In this document: positions 349 to 28,538 of the stretch, piece by piece
Layout: every line of letters begins with the position of its first letter
Position numbering within the stretch: position 1 is the stretch's first letter
NCBI GenBank assembly: GCA_963765875.1
Contig: CAVXYK010000025.1
Location: 48,153 to 80,152, forward strand
Origin: an uncultured Chloroflexia bacterium
Lineage (GTDB): Bacteria > Chloroflexota > Anaerolineae > Caldilineales > Caldilineaceae
Reading direction: 5' to 3'
DNA length: 32,000 nucleotides
The notes under the pieces: generated by a model
Told to the model about the DNA's origin: nothing
The model's input: only the letters and a program-made list of their open reading frames with translations
Database searches by the model: none
Program-made: the position numbers and the translations under genes

Positions 349-966
349 TCATATCAACACACTCAACAATGCATAGATGCCAAATGCCCCGATGACGACG
401 CCGGCAATTCGGTTGATCCATTGCATGGCCTCAGGACCGATGCGGCGCCGAAAGAGCGAGCAACCGCCGCTCAGCAACAGCCACCAGAACGCCGACCCGC
501 AAAATACACCGGCCACGATCAATATCGCCGTGCGGTAGTCGTTCTCGTCTGATGCCAACCCCAACCCGGCAAAAATAGCCACAAACGACAGGATCGTGAT
601 CGGATTGGTCAGCGTAAGCACGAATGTCGACAGGTAGGCCGCCGGCAGTCCCCCGCTCCGGGCACTTGCCGCTTGATCCGCGGGTGGCGTAAGAAATGTA
701 CGCACTGCCAAATAGCAGAGAAAGAGCCCGCCGACAATGGCCAGCCAGAATTGATGTTCGATCAGAAAGGCCGAGACCAAGACCAGCCCAAAGGCGGCGA
801 TGCAGCCATAGACGGCGTCGGCGGTTGCCGCGCCCAGGCCGGAGACCAGTCCGGTCACACGTCCATCATTCAACGTACGCTGAATACAGAGCAGACCGAT
901 GGGGCCGACCGGTGCAGCAATGGCAAACCCGATGCCCAATCCACGTCCAAACAAGCCAATGTCCAC
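349..966 (-). CDS. LysE/RhtB-family amino-acid exporter
   Basis: 205 aa and very hydrophobic. The N-terminus GLGIGFAIAAPVGPIGLLCIQRTL is typical of LysE-type translocators. GTG start lies 3 nt after the stop of the upstream NUDIX gene. Confidence 0.75.
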   Translation of the reverse strand: MDIGLFGRGLGIGFAIAAPVGPIGLLCIQRTLNDGRVTGLVSGLGAATADAVYGCIAAFGLVLVSAFLIEHQFWLAIVGGLFLCYLAVRTFLTPPADQAASARSGGLPAAYLSTFVLTLTNPITILSFVAIFAGLGLASDENDYRTAILIVAGVFCGSAFWWLLLSGGCSLFRRRIGPEAMQWINRIAGVVIGAFGIYALLSVLI

Positions 967-969
967 AAT

Positions 970-1434
970 CTACCACTTCCCTGTTGTGACGCCTTCACCT
1001 GTAGAATACTCTCCAATTCGCCTGGCAGTCGCCGGCGAAACATCGACGGGCAATGCGTCCAGGTCAAAGGATCGACAGGCTTCGATCTCCCAGCGGTCAG
1101 ACCGATCCCCTTGCTCAAACTGTTCACAAACAAACAGAACGATATGGTCACTCTTGTGCTCGATGAAGTTCGAGAAGAGACCGGCCAGTCGCAGGTGCTC
1201 TCCCACCTCCGCGCCGACTTCCTCCATCACCTCGCGCCGGGCCGCTTCAATTGGCATCTCGCCCTTCTTGACTGCACCGCCGGGCAAGTACCAGTGATCC
1301 TGATAGGTATGTCGCACCAGAATCACCTGCCCATTCTGGATCAACAACACGCGAACACCCACGATCATCGGCCGTGTGAACCACCAGTATATGGTCGCCA
1401 GCCGGTAGACCAGGCGCATCAGCAACGACTTCAT
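970..1434 (-). CDS. NUDIX hydrolase
   Basis: Nudix box [26 protein letters not shown] (GX5EX7REUXEEXGU). The ATG overlaps the stop of the upstream small-subunit gene as ATGA (1434-1431). Confidence 0.85.
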
Positions 1435-1925
1435 GCCACGGCCAGCCTGGCTTTGACATAGTCAACCAGGCCGCCCGCCTGCACAATGCCCAGCACGCTG
1501 GGGCTGAGCGGTGGGAAGCCAAACTCGCCTGCCCCACATCTGACCAGATTGCGTTCCAGATCGATTACGACTTCCTCTCCGGCCACGATCTTCGGGACAG
1601 CCGCCGGGCAAGCAATAACCAGCAGGCCGTTGTTGAGTGCATTGCGATAGAAGATGCGACTGAAACTCTCGGCAATCACTGCACCGATGCCGTTGTAGAC
1701 CAGGCAGGTCGCGGCCTGCTCCCGGCTGGAGCCGCACCCCCAGTTGCGCCCGGCCACAATCAGATCCCCGGGTTGTACGCCTTCTACAAAAGTCGGGTCC
1801 AGGTCCTCCAAAGCGTGCGCGGCAATTTCAGATCGCTCCGTCAATGTGTAGGTGTATTTGCCGGGAAAAATGACGTCGGTGTTGACGTTATCCCCGTATT
1901 TCCAGGTTCGACCGGTGATTTGCAT
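1431..1925 (-). CDS. hacB: homoaconitase / 3-isopropylmalate dehydratase small subunit (archaeal/Thermus type)
   Basis: 164 aa. N-terminus [20 protein letters not shown] and GCGSSREQA are typical of LeuD-type-2/HacB. GGAG Shine-Dalgarno sits 5-6 nt upstream of the ATG. It lies next to the large subunit and in a cluster with homocitrate synthase. Confidence 0.85.
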
Positions 1926-1939
1926 GATGTCTCCAGATA

Positions 1940-2025
1940 GGACGGCGATGACACGGACAAGGCGGATGCTGACGAATCTCCTGTCACTATCCCTGCGTAT
2001 CCGCTAGACCTGTGTCATCCGTCGC

Positions 2026-2026
<1 letters not shown>
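1940..2026. repeat. imperfect intercistronic palindrome between the homoaconitase subunits (syllables GATGACAC / CGGATG)
   Basis: gacggcgatgacacgg...gcggatgctgacg // cgtatccgc...cctgtgtcatccgtcgcc. The arms are roughly reverse-complementary, with indels. Confidence 0.3.
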
Positions 2027-3381
<1,355 letters not shown>

Positions 3382-3395
3382 TTGGATTTCGTCTC

Positions 3396-3456
3396 AAAAA
3401 CTTCACCACGGAGACACAGAGATTGCACAGAGATCACGGAGAAAAGACAATTCTCC
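3396..3456. repeat. CACGGAG/CACAGAG syllable element (single arm plus small hairpin) in the hacA 5' region
   Basis: aaaaacttcaccacggagacacagagattgcacagagatcacggagaaaagacaattctcc. Same vocabulary as the element at 24162-24275. Confidence 0.6.
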
Positions 3457-3522
3457 ATCAGTGATGGCATGCACACTGAACGGTGAGGTTGGCAAAAGTA
3501 CTGAACTCGTCGTGCCTTCAGT

Positions 3523-4104
3523 TTAGATCAGTTGATTAAGCACTAGATAGGCGACGGCGGCCACGGTCGTGCGCTCTTTGATCTCGCCCGAACGCACTGC
3601 TTCCTTGAGCCAATCGACCGAACACCAATGCAAGGCGATGAACTCGGTCGGCTCCAGCGCGGCGGCGGCGCTGGGCACGACATCAAAGGCAGCAACAACA
3701 TGGCTGACCGTAGGCCCCAATCCCGGGTTGTCCCAGACACCGCCCAGATAGCGCACGGTTTCATCATTGACGGCCTTGGGCGCGTAACCGGTCTCTTCAG
3801 CCAGTTCGCGCAGCCCTGCTGCGATCAGATCCTCGCCTTCATCAACCAGACCGCCGGGCAATTGCCAGATCACCTGGCCCAGTCCATGCCGGTACTCACG
3901 TTCGAGCAGGATGCGTCCTTCGCCGTCAAAGGCCGCTACGGCCACGCCGACGCCGGCTGGCCGAAGGCGAGTGTACTCGTACTCGACGCCATTGGGCAGC
4001 CGTACCTCGTCAACATAGATGCCGGCCCAGCGATTGTCGAACTCGACCCGGGTCGAGAGCGTCTGCCATGGCCGAGGATCAGAGACTCTGTTTTGGTCAC
4101 CCAT
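3523..4104 (-). CDS. NUDIX hydrolase (ADP-ribose pyrophosphatase-like)
   Basis: Nudix box GGLVDEGEDLIAAGLRELAEETGY. The start overlaps the upstream stop by 1 nt (TGATG). Confidence 0.8.
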   Translation of the reverse strand: MGDQNRVSDPRPWQTLSTRVEFDNRWAGIYVDEVRLPNGVEYEYTRLRPAGVGVAVAAFDGEGRILLEREYRHGLGQVIWQLPGGLVDEGEDLIAAGLRELAEETGYAPKAVNDETVRYLGGVWDNPGLGPTVSHVVAAFDVVPSAAAALEPTEFIALHWCSVDWLKEAVRSGEIKERTTVAAVAYLVLNQLI

Positions 4105-4676
4105 CAGTCTGTCCTTTGCACCTGGGTAAGAACATCATCGGTCTCAACCACGGTGGCGAATTCGCCATGCAAGCTGGCCAGAGCCAGGTCGTGCACCTGC
4201 TCAGCCGGATAGTGGCGACCATCATGGCCGGTGCGGTCGAATGTTGCCGTTGCATCGGCCACGAGATACGTCTCGAAGCCCAGATTGCCGGCCATCCTCG
4301 TCGTCGTCGAGACGCAATGGTTGGTGGTCAGCCCGACAATGACAAGCGTGTTCAGATCGTGTTTCCGCAGATAGTCCTCAAGATCCGTACCGATGAACGC
4401 GCTGTTGACGCTCTTCCGGAAGATGGGTTCATCTTCGATCGGCCGGGCAAATTCCTGGAACTCAACGCCAGGCTGATCCGGCAGCAGCGGCGAACCGGGT
4501 GTGACCGAGCAATGTTGAACATGCAGAATCGGGCGTCCGGCAGTGCGCCATTCTGTGAGGAGGCGAGACATGTTTGCTTCGGCGCCCGGGTTGTTGCGAC
4601 GCCCCCAGACCGGATCGCTGAACCCCTGCTGTACGTCGATCATCAGCAACACGGCATCTTGCGGCAGAGCGTTCAT
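4104..4676 (-). CDS. isochorismatase-family cysteine hydrolase (nicotinamidase-like)
   Basis: LLMIDVQQGF N-terminal motif and the VIVGLTTNHCVSTT Cys motif of the isochorismatase/PncA family. AAGGAA Shine-Dalgarno upstream. Confidence 0.75.
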   Translation of the reverse strand: MNALPQDAVLLMIDVQQGFSDPVWGRRNNPGAEANMSRLLTEWRTAGRPILHVQHCSVTPGSPLLPDQPGVEFQEFARPIEDEPIFRKSVNSAFIGTDLEDYLRKHDLNTLVIVGLTTNHCVSTTTRMAGNLGFETYLVADATATFDRTGHDGRHYPAEQVHDLALASLHGEFATVVETDDVLTQVQRTD

Positions 4677-5096: not shown

Positions 5097-6302
5097 CTAT
5101 GCCACATCCCCGTTCAGCGAGCCGTTCAACATCGCCTCGGCAATCACCGCATCCGACGCCGTGGTATGCACATCCTGGCTGTGATAGTGGCGCAGCAACA
5201 CATCCACATCGTCCAGGCTCAGGTTCTTCTGATCGGCCAGCGCCTTGATCTGGGCGGTGATGATCTTGATCTGCTCATCGGTCAGATCGAGTTGCAACTG
5301 CTCGGCCCGCTGCTTGATGGCGTTCCAGCCGGTCAGGCGATGGGCGACGTGCACGTAACGGGTCAAACCAAAGTCGGCTGGGTCCAGGATCTCGTAGGTG
5401 CTCGGGTTGTTGAGAATGGCCTTGGCATGAATGCCTGCCTTGTGAGTGAAGGCAGTGTAGCCGGTGATGTAGTTGTTGAAGGGCACATCGACGCTGACCA
5501 ACTCGGCCACAATGTTCTCCACCTCGCGCAGCAGCGGCAGATCGTAGCGACTGCGAATGCCTTCAGGATCGTCGGCGTACATGCGGGCGATAAAACCGCC
5601 CAGCGGCGTGATGCCGTTGCGCTCGCCGATTCCCAGCACGGACGTGTCAATGTGGGTGGCCCCGGCCGACAGCGCGGCATAGGCATTGGCGATGGCGCAG
5701 CCGGTATCGTTGTGGCCATGAAACTCGATGTCACAGCCGACGACGCCGCGCAGCGTCTTGATCAACTCGTAGACCTGCATCGGATGGGCGATGCCCACCG
5801 TGTCGGCGATACCGACACGGTTGATGCCGATGGAGTCGACCTGGCGGTAGATGGTGAGCAGATCGACCAGATCGCTGCGGAAGCTGTCCTCGCTGCTGAA
5901 GCGCACCTCGATGCCCTGGCTCTTGACAAACTCGACGACCTCGATGGCCGACTCGATGATGTGGGCGATGTCCTTGCCGTGGGAGAACTCGCGCAGCAAA
6001 CTGCTGGTGCCAAAGAGCACGTCAATGCCGTCGACGCCGGTGTCGATGGCGACCTTGGCATCGTCCATATGGCAGCGCACATGGGTCAGGATCTTGGCAT
6101 TGAGGCCAAGCCCGGCAATGCGCTTGCAGTCAGCCAAACTCTGAGGGCTGGCCACGGGTGATGTGACTTCCAGATATTCAACGCCGAAGGCGTCGAGCAA
6201 TCGGGCGATTTCCGCCTTCTGATCGCTGGTGAAGAAGGCGTTGGCAAACTGCTCGCCCTCGCGCAGCGTCGATTCAATGATGGCAAAGTTCTCAAGGCTC
6301 AT
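5097..6302 (-). CDS. hcs: homocitrate synthase (alpha-aminoadipate lysine pathway)
   Basis: [31 protein letters not shown] and [13 protein letters not shown] resemble Thermus-type HCS as I remember it. It lacks the LeuA C-terminal regulatory domain. I prefer the ATG at 6302 (GGAG 9 nt upstream) over the TTG at 6326 used by the ORF track. Confidence 0.85.
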
Positions 6303-6365
6303 GGGCTGGTTCTCCTGAAGGTCCAAACTCGTGTCGGTCCAGTTTCAGCGAGTCTTTGGAAGGGC

Positions 6366-6486
6366 GTTTTTGTCACAGATTTTCACGGATGAAAAAAGAT
6401 AGGGCACAGATAGGGTTAGGAATATTCTGGGATCCCTGGAACATCTGTGAGAATCCACCCTTTATCTGTGGCCATCTGTGTCTCGC
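6366..6486. repeat. degenerate CACAGAT-syllable palindromic element in the hcs 5' region
   Basis: gtcacagattttcacggatg...gggcacagat // acatctgtgag...ttatctgtggccatctgtgtc. Confidence 0.6.
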
Positions 6487-6588
6487 TCTTCCTGGCATCG
6501 TTTTACGCCAAAACTGGGTTTTCATACCGGGTCTGCGTCCATGCAGGAGGCCATCGTTGGCAGTCGATTTGGGAAGTATGGTATGCAC

Positions 6589-6622
6589 AAAAAAACCGGC
6601 TCATCCGTCTGGATGGCCGGTT
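6589..6622 (-). terminator. intrinsic terminator (candidate attenuator terminator)
   Basis: The minus-strand RNA reads AACCGGCCAUCC-AGAC-GGAUGAGCCGGUU followed by UUUUUUU. The stem is 12 bp with one bulged A. Confidence 0.65.
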
Positions 6623-6663
6623 GCTATCTACTCAGAAGTGCGAGCAAGCACGGATATCCAGAC

Positions 6664-6735
6664 TTAGTCCGGGTTCGACTTCTTGCTCTTCTTGTTGATG
6701 GAAATGCTGCGTTCAAAATGCATGTTGGTTGCCAT
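6664..6735 (-). CDS. candidate 23-aa Lys-codon leader peptide MATNMHFERSISINKKSKKSNPD
   Basis: Hand translation; the ORF is below the track cutoff. Four AAG codons fall within five consecutive codons. It is flanked by a promoter-like pair upstream and a terminator downstream, on the same strand as hcs. No clear Shine-Dalgarno. Confidence 0.4.
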   Translation of the reverse strand: MATNMHFERSISINKKSKKSNPD

Positions 6736-6768
6736 TGGTCTGCGACATTGGCGTCAAGAATGTGCGGA

Positions 6769-6797
6769 ATGATAGCAGCGTCACCAATGGCTGTCAA
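6769..6797 (-). promoter_or_regulatory. sigma70-like promoter for the leader transcript
   Basis: On the minus strand: TTGACA (6797-6792), a 17-nt spacer, then TATCAT (6774-6769). Confidence 0.45.
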
Positions 6798-6826
6798 ATT
6801 CATACGGCTGCGCGCACACAGGGAGG

Positions 6827-6926
6827 CAGGGTTCAAACCCGCCTCTAGCACCGACCCGTCGCCTCAGCGACTGGCCCATGGCGCAAATGGCATGCTCAAC
6901 ACAAAGCGCCTGAGGGCGCTTCTCGT
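6827..6926. repeat. about 100-nt hairpin-module repeat, copy A
   Basis: About 85% identical to 7194-7295. Contains the gtcgc-ctca-gcgac and gcgcc-tgag-ggcgc tetraloop hairpins and a gggttcaaaccc hairpin. Confidence 0.7.
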
Positions 6927-6993
6927 TGTCAAACTGAGGTCAATTTGAAACCTACGGTTCGGTGATGCGACCTTTGGATCGAAAAGACACTCT

Positions 6994-7085
6994 GTCATTC
7001 CGAACAGAGTGAGGAATCTTGACGCCACCGATCTCAAGATTCCTCACTCCGTTAGCGCTTAGCGCCCACTTCGTGAACGGATGAC
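6994..7085. repeat. GTCATTCC...GGATGAC palindromic element
   Basis: gtcattccgaacagagtgaggaatctt...aagattcctcactccgtt...cggatgac. It is nested between the inverted ctacggttcgg (6951-6961) and ccgaaccgtag (7106-7116). Confidence 0.6.
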
Positions 7086-7193
7086 ATGCATTGTTGCTTC
7101 TGCAAAACCTGCTCCCGAACCGTAGTCTTCAATCTGACATGAGTATAGCCGCGGAATTCGTTCCCGCGGGCCATGGTCAGGCCATCATCGATG

Positions 7194-7295
7194 CAGGGTT
7201 GAAAACCCGCCTCCAACATCGACCCGTCGCCTCAGCGACTGGCCCATTGGCGCAAATAGCACGCTCAACACAAGCGCCTGAGGGCGCTTCTCCCT
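7194..7295. repeat. about 100-nt hairpin-module repeat, copy B
   Basis: Aligns with 6827-6926. It is bracketed by a 22-bp direct repeat, agccgcggaattcNttcccgcg (7147-7168 and 7299-7320, 21/22). Confidence 0.7.
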
Positions 7296-7442
7296 GTTAG
7301 CCGCGGAATTCATTCCCGCGTTCATGTATGCGTCGGCATGATTCCTATTGCCCCCTTTGTAAGCCGATTTGCATAAACCGGCCCATTCTTCCGCTACGAT
7401 ACGGCTAGACTCGGGTATCTCGCATCTCGAAAAGGAGATCGC

Positions 7443-8732
7443 ATGGTTCAACGACAACGCCGCATTGTAGGCATGGCCCTGTTACTGGTTTTCCTGGTAC
7501 TGGCGCTTGCCGGCTGCCAGCCTGTTCTCCTATCTGACGAGACCGCCGGGGCGGCAATGCCCTTGCCCGGAGAACTGTCGACAAGGACATCTCCCAGTTC
7601 TGAGAACCGTCTGCTTGTCCTCGGCTCTGACGGCAACATCTACACTGTCAACCCGGACGGCACGGAGCGCTTCTCGTTGACCAACGACGCCTCCTCCAGT
7701 AAGCAATACTTGCAGCCGACCTGGTCGCCCGACGCAGAGCGTATCGCCTGGACCGAGATCGAGCTGACCGATGGCGACCCGACCAGCACGATTATCACGG
7801 CCCAGTGGGACGGCAGCGAACGCGTCGATGCGGAGGTGCCCTTTGCGCCTTTCTACATCTTCTGGAGCCCGGACAGTTCGAGGCTTGCCTACCTAAGCAA
7901 CTGGCTCAACGGCAGCCTCCCCTCAATGGCGCTGCGCCTGGCTGAACTACCCACTAACCTCGATGGTTCCGAGCCATTGGCCACGTCCACATTGGCCCAG
8001 GGACAGCCACTCTATTTCTCCTGGTCGCCGGACAGCCAACGGCTGTTGACCCACACCGGCGATGACGAGTTGGCAGTCCAGGCGCTGGACGGCAATCGGG
8101 AATCGATCGATGCCCCCGCAGGCGCGTTTCCAGCGCCTCAATGGGCAACCAATGGTAATGAATTGGTCTATGCGGTGACCGAGGAAGACAGACAGCGTCT
8201 GATCGTCACAGATCTCGAAGGTGATCTGTTGGAGGAAGTCACGGATTACGTTGATCGCATCACCTTTTCGCTCAGCCCCGATGGGCGTCAGGTTGCCTAT
8301 GTCGTAAGCGAAAGCGATGCCAGCATGGCCGCACTAGGCCCGCTCTTCGTCTACGAGTTCGAGTCGCAGCAGACGCGGGAGCTGTCGTCAATTCCGGCGA
8401 TCGCCTTCTATTGGAGTCCCGATAGCCAGAAACTGGCCTACCTGACACCCGACTCGGGGGGACAGCGCATTGATTTTCTCTGGAACGTCTGGGATGGAGA
8501 GCAGAAGATCGAATATGCCGATTTTTTGCCGTCGCGCACCTTCTTCCAGTCGTACCTGGCCTTCTTTGACCAGTACGCCCAGAGCATGTCGATGTGGGCG
8601 CCGGACAGTAGCGCCTTCGCCTATGCAGGCACGGATCGGGGCAGATCGGGAATATGGGTGCAGCCGCTCGGAGAGGGTGAGCGGCCGGTTGCAGTCGGTC
8701 CGGGCGTCGTGGTGGCGTGGTCGCCCCGGTGA
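7443..8732 (+). CDS. PD40/TolB-like beta-propeller lipoprotein
   Basis: Signal peptide with lipobox LALAGC. Reiterated W-S-P-D-(S/G)-x-x-(L/I)-A-Y PD40 motifs. AAGGAG Shine-Dalgarno. Confidence 0.75.
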   Translation: MVQRQRRIVGMALLLVFLVLALAGCQPVLLSDETAGAAMPLPGELSTRTSPSSENRLLVLGSDGNIYTVNPDGTERFSLTNDASSSKQYLQPTWSPDAERIAWTEIELTDGDPTSTIITAQWDGSERVDAEVPFAPFYIFWSPDSSRLAYLSNWLNGSLPSMALRLAELPTNLDGSEPLATSTLAQGQPLYFSWSPDSQRLLTHTGDDELAVQALDGNRESIDAPAGAFPAPQWATNGNELVYAVTEEDRQRLIVTDLEGDLLEEVTDYVDRITFSLSPDGRQVAYVVSESDASMAALGPLFVYEFESQQTRELSSIPAIAFYWSPDSQKLAYLTPDSGGQRIDFLWNVWDGEQKIEYADFLPSRTFFQSYLAFFDQYAQSMSMWAPDSSAFAYAGTDRGRSGIWVQPLGEGERPVAVGPGVVVAWSPR

Positions 8733-12244: not shown

Positions 12245-12358
12245 CCCACAGATTTACACAGGTAAAAATAGGATAAGACAGAGAAGGTACCGGGATTACT
12301 CTAGACATCTGGTAAACATCTGTGAAAATCAGCTCCTTATCTGTGGCTATCTGTGGCA
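12245..12358. repeat. CACAGAT-syllable element (degenerate), directly abutting the CACGAAT element
   Basis: cccacagatttacacagg...aacatctgtgaaaatcagctccttatctgtggctatctgtggcag. Confidence 0.6.
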
Positions 12359-21677: not shown

Positions 21678-21801
21678 AAAAAAAGCAATTTGCCACAGAT
21701 AAACACAGAATTCCACAGATGATTCGCAATTTTCCCGGCGGTACAAAATCCTTCTAGAAAACATCTGTGAAAATCTGAGCCCATCTGTGTTTATCTGTGG
21801 C
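21678..21801. repeat. CACAGAT-syllable palindromic element (18-bp perfect terminal stem)
   Basis: aaaaaaagcaatttgccacagataaacacaga...catctgtgaaaatctgagcccatctgtgtttatctgtggc. It lies between convergent genes. Confidence 0.75.
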
Positions 21802-28391: not shown

Positions 28392-28538
28392 AAAAAAGAT
28401 CTGCCACAGATAAACTCAGATGGGCTCAGATTTTCACAAATACTTTCTGAGTCAATTCTGTGTCGTCAGAGACAAACGACGAGGCCATCTGTGTCTCATC
28501 CGTGGAAATCTGTGTCTATCTGTGGCAGATCCCTTTTT
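28392..28538. repeat. CACAGAT-syllable palindromic element between the GRE and its activase
   Basis: aaaaaagatctgccacagataaactcagatgggctcagattttcac...ccatctgtgtctcatccgtggaaatctgtgtctatctgtggcagatcccttttt. It has a 15-bp perfect terminal stem, with an A-run and a T-run at the two ends. Confidence 0.8.

Follow-up and report, generated by a model that had tools for sequence, protein, structure and literature searches.

What controls the homocitrate synthase gene (hcs), which encodes the first enzyme of the alpha-aminoadipate (AAA) pathway of lysine biosynthesis, in a member of the Chloroflexota? The question is raised by contig CAVXYK010000025.1 of an uncultured Chloroflexia bacterium of the family Caldilineaceae (assembly GCA_963765875.1), of which we analyzed positions 48,153 to 80,152 (the window, meaning this whole stretch of 32,000 nt). 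A preliminary description made from the sequence alone had proposed that a short leader upstream of hcs encodes a lysine-rich peptide and folds into mutually exclusive helices, as in ribosome-mediated attenuation. The parts of this leader, its conservation, its alternative pairings, its coding frame and its spacing make it, in our view, a real and well-supported lysine attenuator. We think it very probable that it works as a ribosome-mediated (leader-peptide) transcription attenuator tying the expression of hcs to the supply of charged tRNA-Lys. All leader parts and coordinates are read on the minus strand of the window.

Parts of the hcs leader

The features of the leader are collected in Table 1, and all the coordinates proposed for them at the outset were correct when checked on the minus strand. 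The leader begins with a sigma-70-type promoter that matches at 11 of 12 positions and has an extended -10 element. It was the sole promoter-like site in a scan of positions 6000-7500 and would start the transcript near position 6762. Next comes a small open reading frame (ORF) of 23 codons, with a further in-frame ATG at 6723, in which four of five consecutive codons are AAG (Lys) codons, as the preliminary description had stated. The chance expectation of four Lys in five codons is about 1.5e-5 per 23-residue peptide, and lysine accounts for 2.0% of the residues in the proteins of the operon. Directly after the stop codon, GUCUGGAU is the exact complement of AUCCAGAC, which belongs to the 5' arm and loop of an intrinsic terminator with a stem of 12 bp and a U7 tract (-19.9 kcal/mol). 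A simple terminator scanner did not report this hairpin because of the one bulged A in its stem. The next gene is indeed hcs (NCBIfam TIGR02146, 492 bits for a cut-off of 413; its PDB matches are homocitrate synthases), and both homoaconitase subunits are encoded further downstream. The presence of all the leader parts together in the window is unlikely by chance. A second copy of the element was not found in the window, where a match with two mismatches (30883, within an ORF) did not rise above chance. Four ORFs that overlap the leader were also considered as genes (6478-6948 and 6356-6667 on the plus strand, 6373-6588 and 6624-6851 on the minus strand) and were rejected for want of a family match; the last of them runs across the promoter.

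Table 1. Coordinates of the leader parts, the regulated genes and the spacer repeat in the window
Feature	Coordinates	Strand	Details
Sigma-70-type promoter	6769..6797	-	-35 TTGACA 6797-6792; 17-nt spacer; -10 TATCAT 6774-6769; TG at 6777-6776 gives extended -10 TGcTATCAT 6777-6769
Leader small ORF	6664..6735	-	ATG 6735 to TAA 6666-6664; 23 codons; peptide MATNMHFERSISINKKSKKSNPD
Sensor codons	6679..6693	-	AAG AAG AGC AAG AAG (K K S K K), within the small ORF
Region 1	6667..6688	-	GAGCAAG 6688-6682 and CCGGAC 6672-6667; 5' arms of the two-part 1:2 "protector"
Region 2	6642..6663	-	GUCUGGAU 6663-6656 and CUUGCUC 6648-6642; partner is region 1 or region 3
Region 3	6607..6625	-	AGCAA 6625-6621 and AUCCAGAC 6614-6607; terminator 5' arm and loop, antiterminator 3' strand
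Intrinsic terminator (3:4)	6589..6622	-	AACCGGCCAUCC / AGAC loop / GGAUG-A-GCCGGUU, then U7
hcs	5097..6316	-	Homocitrate synthase; Shine-Dalgarno AGGAG 6316-6312; coding sequence ATG 6302 to 5097
hacA	2026-3381	-	Homoaconitase subunit; family score 487-510 bits
hacB	1431-1925	-	Homoaconitase subunit; family score 169 bits
CACAGAT/ATCTGTG palindromic repeat copy	6374..6480		In the terminator-to-hcs spacer; not a part of the attenuator
Copies of the repeat element (about 110 nt)	6374-6480, 12247-12355, 21694-21799, 28405-28524		Four clusters, same layout

Conservation across Caldilineales

Using the hcs protein, we retrieved 80 hcs loci of relatives from a species-representative genome collection. 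The best protein matches (81-86% identity) were from Caldilineaceae, and Candidatus Amarolinea was also in the set; both belong to the order Caldilineales of the Chloroflexota. One of the loci (L031) comes from Litorilinea aerophila, a cultured relative. An alignment of 67 distinct leaders (A1) served to build a covariance model (R1), which recognized 73 of the 80 Caldilineales loci at 58-124 bits (119.5 bits for the window). Each of these loci had a single plus-strand match, without exception adjoining hcs on its 5' side, and R1 found no other copy in the 637 kb searched, the window and flanks included. In these 73 loci the small ORF with its Lys codons, the GUCUGG/CCAGAC complementarity and the terminator directly precede hcs, a clearly positive outcome of the check on relatives that the preliminary description had asked for. 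The model also picked up variants absent from a regular-expression screen, such as CIKSEK (L037 and L038), NSSKEKPD (L049) and SKHNSKKEKPD (L057), together with the leader of L076.

The consensus of A1 reads AAGAAGAGCAAGAAG, 6 nt, CCGGAC, the stop codon, GUCUGG, about 10 nt, CUUGCUC, a variable hairpin and AGCAACCGGCCAUCCAGACGGAUGGGCCGGUUUUUU. The promoter (ATTTGACA-17-TAnnAT) is kept at 9 or more of 12 positions in 64 of the 67 leaders, with a spacing that is nearly always 17 nt. All 67 have the terminator with its U-tract, and the terminator loop, CCAGAC, is among the conserved parts. As little as 25-35 nt separates the terminator from the hcs ATG in about 25 relatives. The element is, in short, a family conserved across Caldilineales.

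A small ORF with a promoter and a terminator could also be read as a minimal transcription unit, that is, as an unrelated small protein gene with an ordinary terminator, incidental complementarities and no regulatory role. This explanation is barely credible to us. Conservation does not extend to the N-terminal two thirds of the peptide, as expected of a leader peptide; the conserved terminator loop is complementary to region 2, with flanks that co-vary; and the unit always adjoins the 5' end of hcs, often at 25-35 nt from its ATG and with no second promoter.

Competing structures of the leader RNA

When the leader of the window was folded without constraints, the helices GAGCAAG:CUUGCUC and CCGGAC:GUCUGG and the terminator all formed. 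The pairing of CCGGAC at the end of the ORF with GUCUGG had been foreseen. The helix formed by GAGCAAG, which lies within the Lys codons, and CUUGCUC is new, and it encloses the CCGGAC/GUCUGG hairpin. Region 2 (GUCUGG...CUUGCUC) complements region 1 (GAGCAAG...CCGGAC) and region 3 (AGCAA...CCAGAC) in the same nested arrangement. The 1:2 structure of the window (-18.1 kcal/mol, z -3.2) was seen in the minimum free energy and centroid folds. The 2:3 structure, folded from nascent RNA 6666-6607 without region 4, reached -23.9 kcal/mol (z -4.7), a value that none of 200 shuffles equaled, and the terminator had a z of -6.1. The combination of 1:2 with 3:4 (-38.0 kcal/mol) is more stable than 2:3, which is in turn more stable than 3:4 alone. 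This is the classic ordering of an attenuator, in agreement with the geometry first proposed, and representative relatives folded with the same behavior.

Across the 67 leaders, 92-93% of the alignment cells in the 1:2 helix and 89% of those in the terminator helix were paired. In the 2:3 helix, the core GUCUGG/CCAGAC was paired in 98.7% and the UUGCU/AGCAA part in 78%; sliding the partner by 1-3 columns as a control left only 19-57% paired. The cores hardly vary because each of them must pair with two partners, and the column-wise covariation signal is weak for the same reason. We therefore relied on the extension of the helix in each sequence and on the swapping of partners. The flanks of the 2:3 helix change together, giving 32 distinct arm pairs in total. 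Examples are GUCUGGAU/AUCCAGAC in the window and CGUCUGGAUA/UAUCCAGACG, CCUGUCUGGA/UCCAGACAGG, AUUCUGUCUGGG/UCCAGACAGGAU, GGUCUGGUUGA/UCAGCCAGACC and GUCUGGUAG/CUGCCAGGC in other leaders. The mean length of the helix was 8.78 bp with its own partner vs 7.64 bp after partners were swapped, and none of 5000 permutations reached 8.78, a significance that is inflated, as is that of the shuffles, by the relatedness of the sequences.

Coding frame of the leader ORF

We anchored a test of the reading frame on the invariant AGC (Ser) codon of the 67 leaders. In 57 leaders the Lys frame had an ATG 6-20 codons upstream and no stop between it and the anchor; this was so for 2 and 1 leaders in the other two frames. 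All 67 had a Lys frame free of stops over at least 11 codons upstream. The stop codon is at position +7 in 48 leaders (TGA in 30, TAA in 12 and TAG in 6) and in the others lies 8, 11, 12 or 16 codons past the anchor, that is, just after GUCUGG or CUUGCUC. As the stop immediately precedes region 2, falls within it or coincides with its end, this region is never left uncovered. Every leader has at least three Lys codons per 11 codons, with synonymous variation between AAG and AAA, and the unpaired codon at +2 specifies Lys in 56 of the 67. The C-terminal consensus of the peptide is K-K-S-K-K-x-x-P-D-stop, in which the Pro codon varies (CCG, CCA or CCC). The final PD was considered as a conserved amino-acid signal and mostly rejected; what is kept is the RNA hexamer CCNGAC. 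Two codons that are free in sequence separate the Lys run from this hexamer with almost no change in length, and so strict a gap fits the geometry of a stalled ribosome. The Lys frame, and no other, looks coding, which suggests that the small ORF is translated.

Several observations weigh against the reading of the leader as a translated lysine sensor. The lack of a Shine-Dalgarno sequence before the small ORF, raised as a caveat in the preliminary description, is real and extends to the whole family: AGGA, GGAG or GAGG occurred at -18 to -4 in 10 of 60 leaders, equivalent to the 10% background, whereas the same test before the hcs ATG was positive in 63 of 67. Nor would the transcript be leaderless, because some 25-80 nt separate the ATG of the small ORF from the inferred start of transcription. 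Part of the Lys motif (GAGCAAG) doubles as a helix arm, and AGC is the only Ser codon used within it. The hexamer CCNGAC is kept even where the frame differs, as in L006 (...TLT-stop) and L011 (...PG...). Because the Lys motif and the PD end overlap pairing segments, some of the conservation of the peptide is driven by the RNA. The structural evidence has its own weaknesses: besides the inflated significance, the core helices are nearly invariant and make column-wise covariation statistics weak. RNAalifold returned an empty and uninformative consensus structure for the alignment of 67 leaders, of which the competing structures and the gaps in the flanks are the probable cause. Last, the spacer between the terminator and hcs is 286 nt long in the window.

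Some of these features would suit an untranslated RNA switch, in which a ligand, a protein or a tRNA toggles the helices and the Lys codons are kept only as a helix arm. The pairing of GAGCAAG with CUUGCUC, the invariance of the AGC codon, the retention of CCNGAC whatever the frame and the missing Shine-Dalgarno all point in this direction. We nonetheless regard such a switch as very unlikely. Rfam gave no match at the gathering threshold, and the families below it were unrelated (E 1.2-9.3). Furthermore, the ATG and open-frame signal is restricted to one frame, three different stop codons are in use and always at region 2, and the +2 codon is predominantly Lys without being paired. The arms of the 1:2, 2:3 and 3:4 helices account for all of the conserved RNA, leaving no obvious aptamer.

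Translation could, alternatively, be sensed in a more general manner. A ribosome slowed for any reason in the final third of the small ORF would shift the structures in the same way, and one clade has Arg codons after the Lys run (CIKSKKR), as might be expected if the attenuator responded to several amino acids, or to translation capacity in general, and not to lysine specifically. This is highly improbable given that Lys, at about 2% of the proteome, is the sole residue enriched in every member (at least 3 of 11 codons in all 67). In addition, the regulated gene encodes the first committed enzyme of lysine synthesis, and a lysine riboswitch occupies the same position in other lineages.

Proposed model of lysine-responsive attenuation

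The evidence on conservation, co-varying flanks, coding frame and energy order supports the lysine attenuator that was first proposed. The leader has a promoter, a Lys-codon ORF, a terminator, an antiterminator that is mutually exclusive with it, a region 1 that overlaps the Lys codons and a stop codon at region 2. From this anatomy and the established knowledge of trp-type attenuation, we can sketch how it would operate. The transcript would start at the conserved promoter and a ribosome would translate the 23-codon leader. With ample Lys-tRNA, the ribosome would reach the UAA and cover GUCUGGAU (region 2a), leaving region 3 free for region 4; the terminator would then form and transcription would end before hcs, giving in the window a leader transcript of about 170 nt. 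If the leader were not translated at all, regions 1 and 2 would pair and the terminator would form too.

With scarce Lys-tRNA, in contrast to the above, the ribosome is predicted by analogy to stall on the AAG codons, most strongly on the last two. When the last Lys codons occupy its A site, it would cover region 1 to about the CCG of CCGGAC. Region 2 would thus be free to pair with region 3 (AGCAA...AUCCAGAC) as the latter emerges from the polymerase. Such pairing would sequester the 5' arm and the loop of the terminator and allow the RNA polymerase to read through into hcs. The response to lysine is what the codon content of the leader predicts, and the downstream homoaconitase genes are probably under the same attenuator.

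A further role could be envisaged for the peptide itself. TnaC senses tryptophan in the ribosome exit tunnel. By a similar token, K-K-S-K-K-x-x-P-D-stop might be a nascent-chain module that slows termination or release and parks the ribosome over region 2, or that senses free lysine in the exit tunnel. We consider this a long shot. If true, the leader would be an arrest-peptide attenuator and not purely a sensor of tRNA charging, which might explain how regulation proceeds via a presumably weakly translated ORF that has no Shine-Dalgarno.

Relation to other lysine leaders and attenuators

The lysine (AAA pathway) gene cluster of Thermus thermophilus is reportedly controlled by a leader-peptide attenuator, described by Tsubouchi and colleagues in 2005. 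We checked this precedent against the Thermus leader sequence. We rebuilt the sequence of T. thermophilus homocitrate synthase (HCS) from a PDB alignment and fetched Thermus metagenome contigs encoding an HCS 100% identical to PDB 2ztj. Upstream of hcs, these contigs have a TTGACA...TATACC promoter, the ORF MLARAKKLGRRGVG-stop with two AAA codons in a row and then GGCCCGgguuCGGGCC followed by a U-tract, a terminator that lies some 20 nt from hcs. In loci further removed (83-87% HCS identity), the leaders take the form M..AKK..G-stop. The Thermus sequence is consistent with the precedent invoked in the preliminary description, as is the statement made there that the two leaders differ. Both are directly 5' of hcs in the same pathway, and both have their own promoter, adjacent Lys codons, a stop a few codons further on and an intrinsic terminator. 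However, we found no sequence relationship between them: R1 had no match at E<=1 in the Thermus loci or the further removed ones tested (L081, L083, L095 and L096), and the sequences differ by eye. The Thermus ORF has 14 codons, two of them AAA, whereas the Caldilineales ORFs have about 18-23 codons or more, with 3-6 mostly AAG codons around the invariant AGC. The helix sequences differ as well, and only in the Caldilineales element does region 3 mimic region 1 in two parts. The host enzyme is also on another branch than the Thermus one, scoring 458 bits to Thermus HCS vs 596 to fungal HCS.

The enterobacterial attenuators trpL, hisL, leuL, thrL, ilvL and pheL have the 1:2 / 2:3 / 3:4 architecture. 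The Caldilineales leader resembles them in the regulatory codons of region 1, the placing of the stop codon between this region and region 2, the terminator with its U-tract and the order of the energies. Unlike them, it would sense lysine, belongs to a Chloroflexota host, has a leader ORF without a Shine-Dalgarno and matches no Rfam leader family.

A third type of lysine control occupies the same slot elsewhere. Of 20 other bacterial loci tested, 10 have the lysine riboswitch (L-box, RF00168) directly 5' of hcs, at 55-112 bits (L110, L112, L115, L119, L124, L126, L127, L130, L134 and L148). Its presumed output, termination at high lysine, is the same, but its sensor is an aptamer of about 180 nt that binds free lysine and not a translating ribosome. 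The presence of the riboswitch at this position supports lysine as the signal and shows that lysine control of hcs arose repeatedly and independently. The search that detects RF00168 at other hcs loci gave no match at the gathering threshold or at E<=10 in positions 6250-6950 of the window, nor in the relatives. Similarly, Rfam gave no T-box (RF00230) match in the leader of the window or of its relatives. The only Rfam match in the window at the gathering threshold was a tRNA-Glu, and a permissive scan of 6250-6950 gave chance-level matches to microRNAs and small RNAs only. Two other loci, L139 and L160, resemble T-box leaders (GGGUGGUACCACGG) and were not reported by Rfam at the gathering threshold.

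Thermus is, to our knowledge, the one studied example of leader-peptide attenuation specific for lysine. Full-text literature searches, which also missed the Thermus paper, retrieved no description of a lysine leader in Chloroflexota. The Caldilineales leader appears to be undescribed so far and is apparently a second, independent and much more widely conserved lysine attenuator. Its mechanism is textbook attenuation and changes no concept. Yet Caldilineales are abundant in the microbiomes of wastewater, soil and sponges, and with R1 this unmarked regulatory element, both the small ORF and its RNA, can readily be annotated in hundreds of metagenome-assembled genomes. Across lineages, no fewer than three different lysine sensors have taken over the 5' end of hcs: the riboswitch and two unrelated leader peptides. 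The mimicry of region 1 by region 3 in two segments suits the study of attenuator evolution where three pairings constrain the sequence, and the element also lends itself to studying how a leader ORF without a Shine-Dalgarno gets translated.

Distant and variant leaders

Two distant members of the family have what appear to be tandem attenuators (L068:2584-3000 and L069:352-760). After the first terminator and still 5' of hcs, they have a second Lys-rich small ORF (MSSHQRTITKRSKSKRPDRGSG-stop in L069 and MKPARHASTKDKKGLKPYVESGQ-stop in L068) with its own GUCUGG.

Outside the Chloroflexota, R1 gave weak matches to L075, from Thermoanaerobaculia (Acidobacteriota), at 29 bits, and to the unclassified metagenome contigs L128 and L135, at 27 bits. 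A terminator of similar sequence (GGCCAUCCAG...GGAUG.GCCGG) is present just before hcs in these two contigs and in the Thermoanaerobaculia loci L072, L075, L077 and L079. The small ORF of L075, MIIHGSGTKRGVKRGGRAASG-stop, has an end complementary to the terminator, and L128 and L135 encode ...AKKESKKQAGGPG-stop. These leaders may be remote homologues or may have been transferred along with hcs.

Right after the terminator, the window (6540-6565) contains the block GCCAAYGAUGGCCUCCUGCA..GACGCAGA, which is also present in L008, L013, L044, L049, L057, L058 and L065. It could fold into two 4-bp hairpins.

The hcs operon and its spacer

After hcs, the minus strand encodes, in this order, an isochorismatase-like protein, a Nudix protein, both homoaconitase subunits, a second Nudix protein and a LysE/RhtB-type exporter. 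The isochorismatase-like hydrolase, the two Nudix hydrolases and the exporter (within 349-4676) are an unusual set to find in an AAA-pathway operon. The exporter might pump out lysine or an intermediate and be controlled by the same attenuator. The HCS of the window (5097-6302) is nearer to fungal mitochondrial HCS (Schizosaccharomyces pombe, PDB 3ivs, 596 bits) than to the Thermus enzyme (2ztj, 458 bits). About three quarters of the residues are identical to 3ivs over some 374 residues, as judged by eye, which hints at a shared origin of the Caldilineales and fungal enzymes or at transfer.

The distance from the terminator to hcs had been raised as a second caveat. The palindromic repeat noted there is present; the spacer, however, measures 286 nt and not about 260, and the promoter scan of 6000-7500 revealed no internal promoter downstream of the terminator. 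Heptamers of the CACAGAT type occur 27 times in the window, for 4.9 expected and with 0 of 100 shuffles reaching 27. They make up a dispersed element of about 110 nt, present in four clusters of the same layout (a pair of heptamers on one strand precedes three on the opposite strand, at spacings of 21 and 10 nt), one of which is in the spacer. The long spacer is a lineage-specific insertion of this repeat. It is no argument against the link of the leader to hcs, because the relatives have other hairpins at this position or 25-35 nt only. The hairpins in their spacers are built from the heptamers GAGATTG, GTGACTG, GCGACTG, CACAGAG and CCCCAGT/CCCCAAT, and some relatives have almost no spacer. 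The CCCCAGT/CCCCAAT heptamers recall the short tandemly repeated repetitive (STRR) sequences of cyanobacteria.

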